Shown here piece after piece: positions 2,347 through 36,407 of a stretch of DNA of 64,000 nucleotides. The position numbers and the translations under genes are program-made. A model generated the notes under the pieces. It was not told the origin of the DNA and made no database searches. It saw only the letters and a list, made by a program, of their open reading frames with translations. Origin of the DNA: a phage. Positions within the stretch are counted from its first letter, which is position 1, and every line of letters starts with the position of its first letter. The stretch lies in sequence record PZ154896.1; one strand, 5' to 3'.

Positions 2347-4329
2347 ATGGCACTTCTCTCTCCGGGCGTTGAGCTCAAAGAAACTACCGTACAGAGTACT
2401 GTAGTTAATAACTCCACTGGTACCGCTGCCCTGGCTGGAAAATTCCAATGGGGACCTGCATTCCAGATTAAACAAATCACTGATGAAGTTGCATTGGTTG
2501 ATATGTTTGGTACTCCTAATACGGATACAGCAGATTATTTCATGTCTGCTATGAACTTCCTTCAATATGGTAATGACCTTCGTGTTGTACGCGCAGTTGA
2601 TCGTGATGCTGCTAAGAACTCATCTCCTGTAGCAGGCAATATTGAATTCACAATCTCTGCTGCTGGTAGTAACTATGCAGTTGGTGATAAAATTATCGTT
2701 AAGTATTTGACCGAAACTGTTGAAGCAGATGGTTATGTCACTTCAGTTGATGTCGATGGTAAAATTCTTAACATTTATATCCCAACCGGTAAAATTATTG
2801 CTCGTGCAAAAGAAATTAATGAATATCCGGCATTGGGTTCTAATTGGACCGCCGAAGTTGCCAGTTCTTCTTCTGGACTTTCTGGCGTTATTACAATTGG
2901 TTCTATCGTAACCGATTCAGGTATTCTGTTAACTGAAGTTGAAACTTCTGAAGAAGCTATTACTTCTCTAACTTTCCAAGAATCTATTAAAAAATACGGT
3001 GTCCCAGGCGTAGTTGCTCTTTATCCTGGTGAACTTGGCGACCAGCTCGAAATTGAAATCGTATCTAAAGCAGACTATGACAAAGGTGCTTCAGCCCAGT
3101 TAAAAATTTATCCTGATGGTGGTACTCGTGCATCTACTGCTAAAGCAATCTTTGGATATGGCCCACAAACTGATGACCAATATGCAATTATCGTTCGTCG
3201 TAACGATGCTGTAGTTCAGAGCGTAATTCTTTCTACTAAGCGTGGTGAACGCGATATTTATGGTAGTAATATCTTTATTGATGATTTCTTTGCTAAAGGC
3301 GCAAGCAATTATATTTTCGCTACTGCACAAGGTTGGCCAAAAGGTTTCTCTGGCGTAATCAAACTGAGCGGTGGCTTATCATCTAATGAAACGGTTGACG
3401 CTGGTGATTTAATGGAAGCTTGGGATTTGTTTGCTGACCGTGAATCTGTTAATGCGCAGTTGTTTATTGCCGGTTCTTGTGCAGGTGAATCTTTAGAAGT
3501 TGCTTCTACAGTTCAGAAACATGTTGTAGCAATTGGTGATTCTCGCCAAGATTGTTTGGTTCTTTGCTCACCGCCACGTGCAACTATAGTTGGTATTCCT
3601 GTTAATCGTGCAGTTGATAATCTGGTTGATTGGCGTACTGCGTCAGGAACTTACACTGATAATAACTTTAATATAAGTTCTACTTATGCTGCTATTGACG
3701 GTAACTATAAATATCAATATGACAAATATAATGACGTGAATCGTTGGGTTCCATTAGCTGCTGATATTGCTGGTCTTTGTGCTCGCACAGACAATATTTC
3801 TCAGCCTTGGATGTCTCCTGCCGGTTATAACCGTGGACAAATTCTTAACGTTATTAAGCTTGCAATTGAAACTCGCCAACCACAGCGTGATCGTTTGTAT
3901 CAGGAAGCTATTAACCCTGTTACTGGTACCGGTGGTGATGGGTATGTTCTGTATGGTGATAAAACTGCCACTTCTGTTCCTTCACCATTTGACCGTATTA
4001 ACGTTCGTCGTTTGTTCAATATGGTTAAAACGAACATTGGTTCAGCATCTAAATATCGCCTGTTTGAATTGAACAACGCATTTACCCGTTCTTCTTTCCG
4101 TACAGAGACTTCTCAATATCTACAGGGTATTAAAGCTCTTGGTGGTGTATATAACTTTAAAGTTGTTTGTGATACTACCAATAACACCCCAGCAGTTATC
4201 GACCGTAATGAATTTGTAGCTACTTTCTACTTACAACCTGCCCGCTCGATAAATTATATTACGTTGAACTTTGTAGCAACAGCAACTGGTGCCGATTTCG
4301 ACGAACTAATTGGTACTGTAAGTGGCTAA
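2347..4329 (+). CDS. 18: contractile tail sheath protein
   Basis: 660 aa vs 659 in T4; SD AAGAGGA upstream; late promoter upstream. Confidence 0.95.
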   Translation: MALLSPGVELKETTVQSTVVNNSTGTAALAGKFQWGPAFQIKQITDEVALVDMFGTPNTDTADYFMSAMNFLQYGNDLRVVRAVDRDAAKNSSPVAGNIEFTISAAGSNYAVGDKIIVKYLTETVEADGYVTSVDVDGKILNIYIPTGKIIARAKEINEYPALGSNWTAEVASSSSGLSGVITIGSIVTDSGILLTEVETSEEAITSLTFQESIKKYGVPGVVALYPGELGDQLEIEIVSKADYDKGASAQLKIYPDGGTRASTAKAIFGYGPQTDDQYAIIVRRNDAVVQSVILSTKRGERDIYGSNIFIDDFFAKGASNYIFATAQGWPKGFSGVIKLSGGLSSNETVDAGDLMEAWDLFADRESVNAQLFIAGSCAGESLEVASTVQKHVVAIGDSRQDCLVLCSPPRATIVGIPVNRAVDNLVDWRTASGTYTDNNFNISSTYAAIDGNYKYQYDKYNDVNRWVPLAADIAGLCARTDNISQPWMSPAGYNRGQILNVIKLAIETRQPQRDRLYQEAINPVTGTGGDGYVLYGDKTATSVPSPFDRINVRRLFNMVKTNIGSASKYRLFELNNAFTRSSFRTETSQYLQGIKALGGVYNFKVVCDTTNNTPAVIDRNEFVATFYLQPARSINYITLNFVATATGADFDELIGTVSG

Positions 4330-5018: not shown

Positions 5019-6590
5019 ATGAAATTTAATATCTTAAGTTTGTTTGCTCCATGGGCAAAAATGGACGAACGTGATTACAAAGACCAAGAAAAAGAAAATT
5101 TAGAATCTATCACCACACCAAAATTGGACGACGGCGCTAAAGAATATGAAGTATCTGAAAATGAAGCACAGCAAACATATAATGCTATGTTTCAGAGAAT
5201 GTTCGGTAGTCAAGAACCAGGGCTCAAATCAACCCGTGAATTAATCGATACGTATCGAAATTTGATGACGAACTATGAAGTGGATAACGCGGTCTCTGAA
5301 ATAGTTTCCGATGCTATCGTGTATGAAGATGATACAGAAGTCGTTTCTATAAATTTAGACAACACAAAATTTAGTCCAAATATCAAATCAATGATGTTGG
5401 ATGAATTTAACGAAGTGTTAAATCATTTATCTTTCCAACGTAAAGGTTCAGATCATTTTAGACGTTGGTATGTGGATTCTCGAATTTTCTTCCATAAAAT
5501 TATTGACCCTAAACGCCCTAAAGAAGGTATTAAAGAGCTTCGTCGTTTAGACCCACGTCAAGTTCAATATGTCCGTGAAGTTATTACAACCACTGAAGCC
5601 GGTGTTAAAATAGTCAAGGGTTATAAAGAATATTTCATTTATGACACATCACAAGAATCTTATGCTTGCGATGGTCGCATATATGAAGCTGGCACAAAAA
5701 TAAAAATCCCTAAAGCCGCGATTGTTTATGCCCATTCTGGTTTAGTTGATTGTTGTGGTAAAAATATCATCGGTTATTTGCATCGGGCTATTAAGCCAGC
5801 GAACCAATTAAAACTTCTTGAAGATGCCGTAGTAATTTATCGTATTACTCGTGCTCCCGATCGTCGTGTATGGTACGTTGATACAGGTAATATGCCTTCA
5901 AGAAAAGCAGCAGAACATATGCAACATGTTATGAATACGATGAAAAACCGTATTGCATATGATGCTACTACAGGCAAGATTAAAAACCAGCAGCATATTA
6001 TGTCGATGACCGAAGATTATTGGTTACAACGACGTGATGGTAAAGCAGTAACAGAAGTTGACACATTACCAGGTGCAGATAATACTGGAAATATGGAAGA
6101 TGTACGTTGGTTCCGTAATGCGCTTTATATGGCTTTACGTATTCCTATTACCCGTATTCCAAGTGACCAAGGTGGTATACAGTTTGATGCTGGTACTTCT
6201 ATTACACGAGATGAATTGACATTTGGTAAATTTATTCGTGAGCTGCAACATAAATTTGAAGAGATATTCCTAGACCCGCTTAAAACTAATTTAATTCTTA
6301 AAGGAATTATTACAGAAGATGAGTGGAATGATGAAATAAATAATATTAAGATAAAATTTCATCGGGATAGTTATTTCTCGGAATTAAAGGATGCTGAGAT
6401 TCTGGAGCGTCGCATTAATATGCTTCAGATGGCCGAACCATTTATTGGTAAATATATTTCTCACAGAACAGCTATGAAAGATATTCTTCAGATGTCTGAC
6501 GAGGAAATTGAACAAGAGGCTAAGCAAATTGAAGAAGAGTCGAAAGAGGCTCGTTTCCAAGACCCCGACCAAGAACAAGAGGATTTTTAA
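5019..6590 (+). CDS. 20: portal vertex protein
   Basis: 523 aa; position after gene 19 and size as T4 gp20. Confidence 0.94.
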
Positions 6591-34120: not shown

Positions 34121-34429
34121 TTACATAAGAAGCAAACGTTCTACAGGAGTACCATCAACCGAAATTACTTTATCAAGGCGGAAAGAACGCCACTGACCTA
34201 ACTTGGTGTCGAATGCTCGAACTGATTCACGAGGTTCATAACGAACTTCTGTTGCTGGATTGTTATTTTCATATTTGACTTCAAGTTCATCGCGCGAAGC
34301 AAACATAGTGCGTACCTCACCGTTAGCCTTTTCAAATACAACACAATGAACGCCTACAGACAGAATAGTTTTAATACGTTCACGAAGAACCATAGTTTCT
34401 TGTTCAGTTAAAATCATATTATTCACCAC
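34121..34429 (-). CDS. hypothetical protein (31.1 position)
   Basis: 102 aa ORF; synteny. Confidence 0.6.
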   Translation of the reverse strand: MVNNMILTEQETMVLRERIKTILSVGVHCVVFEKANGEVRTMFASRDELEVKYENNNPATEVRYEPRESVRAFDTKLGQWRSFRLDKVISVDGTPVERLLLM

Positions 34430-35000
34430 AAAAGTTTCGGATTTGTTCCCAATTCAGGGAACGAAGATTATTACGAGAGTACTGAATTACTTCAATACCG
34501 GCTTGTTTTAGAATGTCTGCCCAATTTTCAGGAGATCGATCGTATAATTCTGCGTATACAACCTTTTTAATACCTGACTGCGTAATAGCTTTAGTGCAAT
34601 CAGGACATGGAGAAAGCGTCGTATATAACGTAGCACCTTCAATAGAATTACCTTTACGAGCTGCAAACAAAATTGCATTCAATTCTGCATGGATTTCATT
34701 ATTAGCAGACCATGCACTATGAGCGGCCCGATGTTCTTTAGCCAAAACAAAATTATCCACCCGTCCAAATGCTGTAGTGCCTTCTTTATGTCCAGCAACG
34801 ATGACCGGGCTTGGTTTATTCTTCAACCAACCGTTTTCGGATGCATGTTCACAACAGTTAACGCCACCTGCTGGTGAGCCATTATATCCAGTAGAGATAA
34901 TGCGTCCATCTTTTTCAATGACGGCACCAACTTTCCATGAACAACATTTTGATTCTTGAGAAATCAGATATGCAATCTGAAGGTATGTGCTAGCTTTCAT
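34419..35000 (-). CDS. cd: dCMP deaminase
   Basis: 193 aa; zinc-binding HAE and PCxxC motifs; synteny. Confidence 0.93.
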   Translation of the reverse strand: MKASTYLQIAYLISQESKCCSWKVGAVIEKDGRIISTGYNGSPAGGVNCCEHASENGWLKNKPSPVIVAGHKEGTTAFGRVDNFVLAKEHRAAHSAWSANNEIHAELNAILFAARKGNSIEGATLYTTLSPCPDCTKAITQSGIKKVVYAELYDRSPENWADILKQAGIEVIQYSRNNLRSLNWEQIRNFCGE

Positions 35001-35992
35001 TATTGAACCTTATTAATATAAGTTAACAGCTCTTTAGTTTGTTCCCAACCGATGCACGCATCGGTAACGGAAACGCCATAGGACATATTATCAGAAATTT
35101 TTTGATTTCCTTCATGTAGGAATGATTCTATCATAATTCCTTTGACAAAATCATTAGCTGCTAAATTTTTACCAATACCAATTTGATTGCTATAATACCC
35201 ATCAGCGTTTGCGTGGCTACAGTCAACCATTACATAATGATTCAGACCTAATGCACTTGCTTTGTTAGAAGCTTCTTGAATATCAGAAGAATGATAGTTC
35301 GGGCCGTTAGTCCCGCCACGCAATACGATATGCGTATTCTGATTACCTTCAGCTTCAACAATGCCTACAGTACCATCGACGTCCATACCCATATACCGAT
35401 GAGGCCAGGCGGCACTATACATCGCGTCTGTAGCTACTTTAATAGAACCATTGGTTGCGTTCTTGAAGCCTACGCACATCGGTAGACCTGAAGCAATTTC
35501 ACGATGTGTCTGACTTTCAGTCGTACGGGCGCCAATAGCAACCCATGAGAAAATACCAGAAAGATACTTAATCGTGAATGGGTCTAATACTTCAGTTGCT
35601 AATGGAAGTCCCATACGTAGAAGTTTACGACACAATGTTCGTGCAACTATAAGACCGTGGTTCATATCAAAACTTCCGTCAAGATATGGATCATTTACAA
35701 GACCTTTCCAACCTACGGTAGTTCGAGGCTTTTCAAAATAAACGCGCATCACTAACAGAACATTAGGAAGACGAGTTTGAAGTTCAGCCAGACGTTTGCC
35801 GTATTCAACAGCAGCAATAGGGTCATGAATTGAACAAGGACCTACAACAATAAGTTTGCGTGGGTCTTCACCGTTCATAATCGAATTAACTTGTTCGCGA
35901 TGAGAAGCCACTTGTGATGCGTAAGCTTCCGACAAAGGAATAATCTCAGCCAGTTCTTTTGGAGAAATAAGTTTTCTGACGACAGGTAACAT
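35000..35992 (-). CDS. 3-deoxy-7-phosphoheptulonate (DAHP) synthase, class I AroG/AroF-like
   Basis: 330 aa; GPCSIHD, KPRTTVGWKGL, GARTTESQTHRE, DCSHAN motifs align along the length with E. coli AroG; SD AAGGA; stop overlaps cd start (TAATG). Confidence 0.9.
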   Translation of the reverse strand: MLPVVRKLISPKELAEIIPLSEAYASQVASHREQVNSIMNGEDPRKLIVVGPCSIHDPIAAVEYGKRLAELQTRLPNVLLVMRVYFEKPRTTVGWKGLVNDPYLDGSFDMNHGLIVARTLCRKLLRMGLPLATEVLDPFTIKYLSGIFSWVAIGARTTESQTHREIASGLPMCVGFKNATNGSIKVATDAMYSAAWPHRYMGMDVDGTVGIVEAEGNQNTHIVLRGGTNGPNYHSSDIQEASNKASALGLNHYVMVDCSHANADGYYSNQIGIGKNLAANDFVKGIMIESFLHEGNQKISDNMSYGVSVTDACIGWEQTKELLTYINKVQ

Positions 35993-36112
35993 AACAATCC
36001 TTAGGAGATATAAACAGATTCTGATTCAACAATACCTTTAACCGGATTAGACAGGCTAAGTTGGTAGTGCTAAGATTTATGACCATTCTCGATAGTAATG
36101 AGATAGCTCTCA

Positions 36113-36349
36113 TTATAGTGTTCCATATACTCGAGTTGCTTCAACAAGACCATCACTGCCTAATTTAAGGCTAGTAATCTGGTCACCATCTTTAGGATTA
36201 ACGATTATGAGAAAAGAACGAGGAGATTCTTGAATAACTCGTAATGTTGCATCTTGGAAACGTTCAGACACTTTATTGATGAGTGCTTGAGCAAATTCTT
36301 TTACTTTAATCTGAAATTCGTGTACTGTAATTGGGTTTTCACTTAGCAT
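36113..36349 (-). CDS. hypothetical protein
   Basis: 78 aa; early promoter immediately upstream. Confidence 0.5.
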   Translation of the reverse strand: MLSENPITVHEFQIKVKEFAQALINKVSERFQDATLRVIQESPRSFLIIVNPKDGDQITSLKLGSDGLVEATRVYGTL

Positions 36350-36377: not shown

Positions 36378-36407
36378 ATAGTATCACAACTCCACCATGT
36401 TGTAAAC
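36378..36407 (-). promoter_or_regulatory. early promoter (GTTTAC-N18-TACTAT) heading the operon that includes the DAHP synthase gene
   Basis: consensus elements; no terminator hairpin between here and the DAHP synthase gene. Confidence 0.5.

Follow-up and report, generated by a model that had tools for sequence, protein, structure and literature searches.

We analysed a 64,000-nucleotide (nt) stretch of phage DNA (record PZ154896.1; the whole stretch is called the window here), which comes from a T4-like coliphage, a Mosigvirus with 94-97% nucleotide identity to NHEP29, PHB12 and ZQ3 over 12 kb. [quoted passage not shown] An earlier note, made from the sequence alone, had reported a 330-amino-acid open reading frame (ORF) at positions 35000..35992 and given no strand. 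We found this ORF on the minus strand, where it runs from an ATG at 35992 to a TAA stop at 35002-35000, and a Shine-Dalgarno-like AAGGA (35998..36002, minus strand; CTAAGGATTGTTATG on that strand) stands 5 nt upstream of the ATG. The predicted enzyme keeps its catalytic site and carries a remodelled regulatory site, and it is probably free of aromatic feedback.

The protein is a type I-alpha (AroF/G/H-type) DAHP synthase by every sequence test applied. The Pfam profile PF00793 (DAHP_synth_1) matched it with an E value of 2e-74 and 250 bits (cut-off 25.5), and the NCBIfam equivalog TIGR00034 (aroFGH) and subfamily model NF009395 scored 426.3 bits (cut-off 173.2) and 454.5 bits (cut-off 343), respectively. 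These scores are far beyond chance and bear out the class I assignment made earlier. The isozyme-specific NCBIfam models remained under their cut-offs (AroG, 363.6 bits against 568; AroH, 383.7 bits against 463), and there was no AroF-specific model among the models listed. The database searches that had been proposed also returned DAHP synthases at the top: the best match in the PDB was Escherichia coli AroF (6agm; E 3e-104), followed by the DAH7PS of N. meningitidis and the AroG of E. coli. The phage protein is 48, 51 and 44% identical to E. coli AroG, AroF and AroH, respectively.

The motifs on which the earlier assignment relied (GPCSIHD, DCSHAN, ESFLHEGNQ and SVTDACIGW) are all four present in the translation and hold the metal ligands C53, H260, E289 and D311, equivalent to AroG C61, H268, E302 and D326. 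These four ligands do not vary across all the aligned phage-clade and cellular sequences. Moreover, the residues that bind phosphoenolpyruvate (PEP) and erythrose 4-phosphate (E4P) are kept, with R83, K88, R90, R156, K177 and R225 corresponding to AroG R92, K97, R99, R165, K186 and R234. Altogether, the catalytic and substrate-binding positions are unvaried at 10/10 sites in the window protein and in 29 phage-clade sequences, and none is lost on proper alignment. The KPRT motif is present within EKPRTTVGWKG, which is the same as in E. coli. The phage protein is thus predicted to catalyse the condensation of PEP and E4P to DAHP and inorganic phosphate. An AlphaFold2 model built from a 54-sequence alignment, with a predicted local distance difference test score (pLDDT) of 93.5 and a predicted template modelling score (pTM) of 0.92, showed a predicted (beta/alpha)8 barrel with a beta6a/beta6b hairpin (strands 198-203 and 209-214). 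Foldseek aligned this model to NmeDAH7PS, E. coli AroG and yeast Aro4 with template modelling (TM) scores of 0.94-0.96 and a root-mean-square deviation of 1.3-1.6.

The N-terminus of the phage enzyme is short (MLPVVRKL, encoded at 35969..35992 on the minus strand), and the segment that carries AroG D6/D7 (AroF N8) is missing. In the MAFFT alignment, phage L2 pairs with AroG I10 and AroF I11, which leaves 8 residues missing relative to AroG and 9 relative to AroF, and not roughly 17 as the earlier note had stated. The remainder of the 20-residue length difference is made up of internal gaps (net 7) and a C-terminus that is 5 residues shorter. Ahead of the AroG-L16 column, each of the 29 phage-clade members carries 5-9 residues, whereas the cellular homologues carry 13-18 or more. 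AroG D6 and D7 belong to the phenylalanine (Phe) site of structure 1KFL, and an AroG D6G-D7A variant was selected in a screen with 25 mM Phe (PMC6520568). Since the lost segment includes these inhibitor-contacting residues, the shortening still matters for feedback as had been proposed, only at about half the claimed size.

The allosteric pocket is remodelled as well. Within the loop of residues 141-147 (35552..35572, minus strand), I141, K142, G146 and I147 stand in place of AroG P150, Q151, D155 and L156, and the codons ATT AAG for I141 and K142 were confirmed on the sequence. P171 (codon 35480..35482, minus strand) takes the place of AroG S180 and AroF S181. In the beta6a/beta6b hairpin region (35351..35395, minus strand), Y200 is equivalent to AroG F209, G202 to AroG S211 and AroF G212, and A214 to AroG T223. 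It has been reported that Q151/Q152 and S180/S181 bind the main chain of the inhibitor in AroG/AroF, the serine by its side chain, that D155 contributes a site-stabilising salt bridge, and that Phe resistance of AroG is tied to changes at P150 (P150L is fully resistant), S180 (S180F) and Q151, with F209A and F209S resistant as well; in the Corynebacterium glutamicum enzyme, Q151A and S188F lowered inhibition by tyrosine (Tyr) (PMC9529685). The published salt-bridge partner of D155, K127, mapped poorly (in our alignment R127 is invariant and K128 variable), and we drew no conclusion from it.

The substitutions P150I, Q151K, D155G, S180P and F209Y are found in every phage-clade homologue, at 57-98% identity, while the AroG residues at these positions are kept by most of 89 cellular homologues (P150 in 82/89, Q151 in 87/89, D155 in 87/89, S180 in 86/89 and F209 in 86/89). 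An unbiased scan was then applied to the alignment columns, which retained a column when at least 90% of the phage clade shared one residue, at least 85% of 98 cellular homologues shared another, and the phage residue occurred in at most 5% of the cellular sequences. The scan returned seven of about 330 columns, namely AroG 150, 151, 155, 156, 180, 209 and 223. Four of the seven are in a 13-residue Phe-site list (hypergeometric P = 5e-5), which was partly based on the description of 1KFL and partly taken from PMC9529685 and PMC6520568, and the remaining ones adjoin these positions in sequence. I at 150, K at 151 and Y at 209 occurred in 0/98 cellular homologues. As far as the alignment can tell, what sets the phage enzyme apart from the cellular ones is essentially the regulatory site, with the catalytic site untouched. 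Some AroF-like traits are retained, namely Pro at AroF 148 and Gly (G202, AroF G212) at the Ser/Gly selectivity position, and the latter appears consistent with an AroF-like ancestry. The suggestion in the earlier note that the enzyme may be insensitive to feedback thus gains support from five clade-wide pocket replacements, beyond the N-terminus alone.

The gene is part of a minus-strand array in the order pseT (37988-37089), an ORF of 63 amino acids, an ORF of 74 amino acids, a cd.3-like gene (DUF7355), a cd.2-like gene (DUF7320), DAHP synthase, cd, a gene for a gp31.1-like WYL_2 protein, gene 31 and rIII. The cd.2-like gene (36113..36349, minus strand; 78 amino acids, phrog_1504, 64% identical to T4 Cd.2) is the first gene past a sigma-70 or T4-early-type promoter-like site between cd.3 and cd.2 (36378..36406, minus strand), in which GTTTACA and TACTAT are separated by 17 nt and accompanied by TG. 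This site stands where T4 has the early promoter Pe133295. On the other side, cd (34419..35000, minus strand; 193 amino acids) matched Pfam dCMP_cyt_deam_1 with an E value of 1.6e-26 and is 73% identical to T4 Cd. The DAHP synthase stop (35002-35000) and the cd start (ATG, 35000-34998) share one base in TAATG, exactly as first noted. The T4 annotation shows only cd.1 to cd.5 between pseT and cd and no DAHP synthase, in agreement with the earlier statement that T4 has only small cd.x ORFs here. Genes for nucleotide precursors (frd, td, nrdAB and cd) surround DAHP synthase. Scans for tRNAs and Rfam families across the whole window gave no match.

Some further observations concern the neighbouring genes. 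The gp31.1-like ORF (34121-34429, minus strand), which begins with GTG at 34429, shares 11 nt (34419-34429) with the end of cd, and T4 gene 31.2, which lies between cd and 31.1, is missing in the window phage and in RB69. Two RefSeq names in the related phage HX01 look spurious: the cd.2 homologue (3644-3880) is called 'olfactory receptor-like protein', and the name 'tail fibers protein' is given to the gp31.1 homologue (5576-5872; WYL_2 / Sm-like SH3 fold).

A spacer of 120 nt (35993..36112, minus strand) separates the cd.2-like gene from DAHP synthase and holds part of an unannotated ORF of 55 amino acids. A regulatory RNA, a terminator or an extra promoter in this spacer was rejected, as its fold was not significant (z -0.98), no Rfam family matched, and inspection by eye gave no convincing sigma-70, MotA-box or late promoter. 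The 55-amino-acid ORF (35946-36113, minus strand) has a start codon that overlaps the stop of cd.2 in TAATG, crosses the spacer and ends 47 nt into the DAHP synthase gene in another frame. It opens with a degenerate duplicate of the cd start (first 16 nt; MRAIS vs MKAST), matches no PHROG, and is also uninterrupted in HX01, where a single amino acid differs. A remnant of Cd.1 was rejected as its origin, given that it had no blastp match to T4 Cd.1 and none in PHROGs and that it duplicates the start of cd. This ORF may be a by-product of duplication, or it may serve as a translation coupler.

The 1113-bp DAHP synthase cassette is flanked by a 19-bp imperfect direct repeat whose copies agree at 16/19 positions. 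The upstream copy lies at 36098..36116 (minus strand; ATAATGAGAGCTATCTCAT), and the downstream copy at 34985..35003 (minus strand; ATAATGAAAGCTAGCACAT) consists of the DAHP synthase stop and the first 14 nt of cd. RB69 (NC_004928; 8237-8255) has a single copy, identical to the downstream one, and its junction aligns to both copies of the window. We identified 11 Mosigvirus records that are free of the cassette (RB69, ECO111 5-P, several mar005P1, JK36, JK42 and moha), and in these cd.2 abuts cd. The cassette may have been inserted with duplication of the target, or it may have been lost by recombination-like deletion from one repeat copy to the other. A separate feature of RB69 is that its cd (NC_004928, 7660-8252) is annotated with 169 amino acids, against 193 in the window and in T4; three single-base insertions near the 3' end shift and then restore the frame, and these may stem from errors in older sequencing or reflect a genuine disruption of the C-terminus.

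The gene itself is already known, being annotated in more than 200 phage genomes and catalogued in PHROGs. A tblastn search with the phage protein returned 213 phage records, and identity was at least 95% in about 140. The latter are Mosigvirus of Escherichia and Shigella, such as HX01, ST0, JS09, PhAPEC2 and phi25-307, and the nearest homologue is that of PNJ-9, at 99.7% identity. The carrier records usually label the product phospho-2-dehydro-3-deoxyheptonate aldolase, DAHP synthase or aroF, and some say hypothetical or 'Tyr-sensitive'. In PHROGs, phrog_5045 (category 'moron, auxiliary metabolic gene and host takeover') matched residues 1-330 with an E value of 1.6e-181. The earlier note had allowed for prior annotation in other T4-like phages; this applies fully, and the novelty of the gene was rated too high. 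Full-text literature searches brought up neither biochemical nor genetic work on a phage DAHP synthase, and only a single passing mention of the domain (PMC8022965). The record 'Acinetobacter phage MD-2021a' was set aside as an independent carrier, because one of its two matching contigs, when inspected, proved to be bacterial chromosome. This contig (CAKLQH020000043.1) carries argC, clpS, clpA and fadH around aroF; it appears to be bacterial sequence under a wrong label, which makes the count of phage DAHP synthases too high.

The comparison of gene order across T4-like genomes placed DAHP synthase at the same pseT-cd locus in five named genera, namely in Mosigvirus HX01 (YP_010247097), Kanagawavirus PEi26 (78% identity), Marfavirus F48 (67%), Winklervirus X20 (68%) and Bragavirus PM2 (59%), as well as in a 29-kb metagenomic T4-like contig (57%). 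A homologue of Cd.1 separates DAHP synthase from cd in X20 (blastp E 7.5e-10) and in PM2 (blastp E 5.8e-6), and therefore the slot of the gene is between cd.2 and cd.1; Mosigvirus has no cd.1. The divergence of the enzyme follows that of the flanking Cd and gp31 (enzyme/Cd/gp31 identity of 78/83/78% for PEi26 and 59/65/44% for PM2). Its G+C content of 40.9%, with 29% at third codon positions (GC3), equals that of the phage genes around it, while E. coli aroF and aroG have a G+C content of 52%. Among cellular proteins, even the top homologues reach only about 50-55% identity, and they belong to diverse phyla (Planctomycetota, Kiritimatiellota-like and Gammaproteobacteria), and the 29 phage-clade sequences formed one bipartition in 56/60 neighbour-joining bootstraps. 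Taken together, the divergence that tracks the flanks, the phage-like G+C, the distant cellular relatives, the monophyly and the shared locus are several lines that point to a single old acquisition, probably inherited with the locus. The ratio of nonsynonymous to synonymous rates (dN/dS) was 0.14-0.22 against four other genera, where dS is near saturation, so that it indicates purifying selection only qualitatively. A recent capture from an enterobacterial host was rejected, given the identity of 44-51% to E. coli AroH, AroG and AroF and the G+C of 41% vs 52%. The view that the gene is embedded in the phage operon and is not a recent insertion is thus upheld.

More distant homologues, at 36-38% identity, were found in two phage records that are not T4-like, Aeromonas phage HJ05 (3899-5062) and a human faecal phage scaffold, MT835504 (5001-5990). 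Their catalytic residues are intact and their allosteric positions are non-canonical. Unregulated enzymes may have been acquired independently in these phages, or the residues may simply be traits of the donor lineages.

DAHP synthase is the flux-controlling entry to the shikimate pathway and in E. coli is both feedback-inhibited and transcriptionally repressed. T4-type phages stop host transcription through Alc, whose gene lies a few genes upstream. Given the residues described above, the phage DAHP synthase is probably a constitutively active auxiliary metabolic enzyme without aromatic feedback. We propose that a Tyr-sensitive, AroF-like ancestor was taken up once, long ago, by a T4-like phage lineage, and that the standard aromatic amino acid feedback site was since lost, with the inhibitor-clamping N-terminal residues deleted and the main-chain binders and pocket shapers swapped (P150I, Q151K, D155G, S180P and F209Y). 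The gene would be transcribed along with early nucleotide-metabolism genes, from the promoter-like site through cd.2 and DAHP synthase to cd, and cd would be translationally coupled to DAHP synthase via TAATG. In the infected cell, where induction of host aro genes would be blocked by the phage shut-off of host transcription, the enzyme would be constitutively active and would feed carbon into the shikimate enzymes that the host still has and on to chorismate. A single enzyme could do so because it is the controlled entry step of the pathway. Phage protein synthesis would thereby remain supplied with Phe, Tyr and tryptophan (Trp), and chorismate-derived cofactors might possibly be supplied too. 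In those regions of HX01 that correspond to the window, except for about 7 kb at one of its ends, the annotation shows no further shikimate gene, which is consistent with one deregulated gatekeeper being sufficient.

Several observations weigh against this reading. The gene is dispensable, being absent from T4, RB69 and about ten other Mosigvirus records. The call of the promoter is a consensus match only, and such sites, counted over the whole region, do not outnumber those expected after shuffling. The equivalents of AroG I10/I13, D146 and L179 are retained along with the selectivity Gly, and residual binding of Tyr is possible. Finally, 11/12 pocket columns are at least 95% conserved, against 121/318 columns elsewhere (Fisher p 2.5e-4). 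A ligand site that is simply lost might be expected to drift, and the pocket may thus keep a role. These counts suggest that it is under constraint in its new state, owing either to a structural role at the dimer interface or to another ligand.

The conservation of the pocket raises the alternative that its remodelled residues (I141, K142, G146, I147, P171, Y200 and A214) now bind another effector and that the enzyme is still allosteric, which we regard as unlikely but worth keeping in mind. The effector could be an infection-specific phage metabolite, a nucleotide, or chorismate or prephenate, and flux would then follow the condition of the infected cell and not the aromatic amino acid pools. 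The new residues are unvaried across the clade down to about 57% identity, and the pocket is more conserved than the rest of the protein; the beta6a/beta6b hairpin, which forms the site, is kept in the model, and the gene sits among the nucleotide-precursor genes frd, td, nrdAB and cd. However, no ligand is indicated by the data, packing at the interface of the tight dimer could explain the conservation equally well, and deletion of the N-terminal lid of the pocket favours loss over re-targeting. With a correspondingly low level of confidence, the phage clade may have rebuilt the type I-alpha pocket, its lid removed, into a conserved site that senses an infection-relevant ligand.

We consider it quite unlikely that the protein is an ordinary Tyr-sensitive AroF-like enzyme that merely adds copies during infection, its pocket substitutions being tolerated and its inhibition kept. 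Both main-chain binders (AroF Q152 and S181) are now Lys and Pro, and the N-terminal segment with AroF N8 / AroG D6-D7 is missing. P150L, S180F and D6G-D7A are tied to lost Phe inhibition, and Q151 is also implicated (PMC9529685, PMC6520568). The residues I150, K151 and Y209, moreover, were carried by none of the 98 cellular homologues. What speaks for Tyr sensitivity is that AroF is the top match both in the PDB and in E. coli, that the Gly at the selectivity position and the Pro at AroF P148 are as in Tyr-sensitive enzymes, and that the pocket residues D137, L170 and V212 are kept. On balance, the 'Tyr-sensitive' label of some records is not supported by the residues of the regulatory site.

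It is also very doubtful that the benefit lies in substrate drain, in which the use of E4P (and PEP) would shift the non-oxidative pentose-phosphate pathway in favour of the pentose phosphates needed for nucleotides or, in a variant, would perturb PEP-dependent host functions. This idea parallels the pentose-phosphate auxiliary genes of cyanophages, and an unregulated enzyme would be an effective sink. The location of the gene inside a nucleotide-precursor cluster, coupled to cd, fits circumstantially. But drain is a costly route, consuming one PEP per E4P; it is pure conjecture that the sequence does not separate from a product-driven benefit, and we found no supporting report in the literature. 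Lastly, a decaying or non-functional passenger, or an enzyme of other specificity such as 3-deoxy-D-manno-octulosonate 8-phosphate (KDO8P) synthase, is almost certainly not what the gene encodes: although it is dispensable in RB69, T4 and some Mosigviruses, and although the paper on phage phiC120 that mentions the domain in passing ties it loosely to lipopolysaccharide synthesis (PMC8022965), the ORF is intact in about 200 records with dN/dS of 0.14-0.22, the catalytic residues and the DAHP synthase-type KPRT are unvaried, and KDO8P synthase specificity was rejected on this motif together with an equivalog-level match well above the cut-off.

We return to the probable loss of feedback and compare the phage enzyme with known systems. 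With E. coli AroF (6AGM/6AGL), AroG (1KFL, 1QR7) and AroH it shares TIGR00034, the metal ligands, the PEP and E4P binders and the predicted barrel and hairpin. It differs from AroF and AroG in its N-terminus (8-9 residues shorter), in P150I, Q151K, D155G, L156I, S180P, F209Y and T223A, in internal deletions of 5 and 2-3 residues, in a shorter C-terminus and in a phage-like base composition. The phrog_5045 aldolases of HX01, PNJ-9, phi25-307 ('aroF'), PEi20, vB_Kpn_F48, X20 and PM2 are the same gene in the same arrangement of cd.2, DAHP synthase and cd. Unregulated or dedicated DAHP synthases are also known from cells, such as the type I-beta enzyme of Pyrococcus furiosus, which has no regulatory extensions, and PhzC of phenazine clusters. 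The logic is the same, in that a feedback-free enzyme commits carbon whatever the end-product pools are. In these cellular enzymes (type I-beta and type II), however, whole domains are absent, whereas the phage enzyme has a trimmed N-terminus and pocket substitutions. A closer parallel in the positions changed is offered by enzymes made feedback-resistant in the laboratory, namely aroG-fbr (P150L, S180F, D146N and D6G-D7A) and C. glutamicum AroF (P155L/I and E154N/S) (PMC9529685, PMC6520568). Like these, the phage enzyme is changed, here naturally, at 150, 151, 180 and D6/D7, positions at which mutation relieves inhibition by Phe or Tyr. Unlike them, its changes are combined and fixed across a natural clade and bring in Ile, Lys and Pro in place of Leu, Ala and Phe, and its insensitivity is predicted from these residues.

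As a phage auxiliary metabolic gene the DAHP synthase was already catalogued, and the window adds nothing new in this respect. What is added is a clade-wide, statistically supported signature at the regulatory site, by which the enzyme looks naturally feedback-resistant through the kinds of changes that metabolic engineers make by hand. If this is true, the 'Tyr-sensitive AroF' label found in some phage records would have to be corrected, and shikimate-pathway engineering would gain a stable, pre-optimised deregulated enzyme. The presence and absence of the gene within Mosigvirus, as cassette or as RB69-type junction, offers ready-made comparison strains. Should the pocket instead have been re-targeted, it would be a natural case in which a virus has re-wired the allosteric control of a gatekeeper enzyme in central metabolism. 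If the enzyme is indeed free of feedback, it would show how a lytic phage secures its supply of aromatic amino acids or chorismate after host transcription has been shut off.

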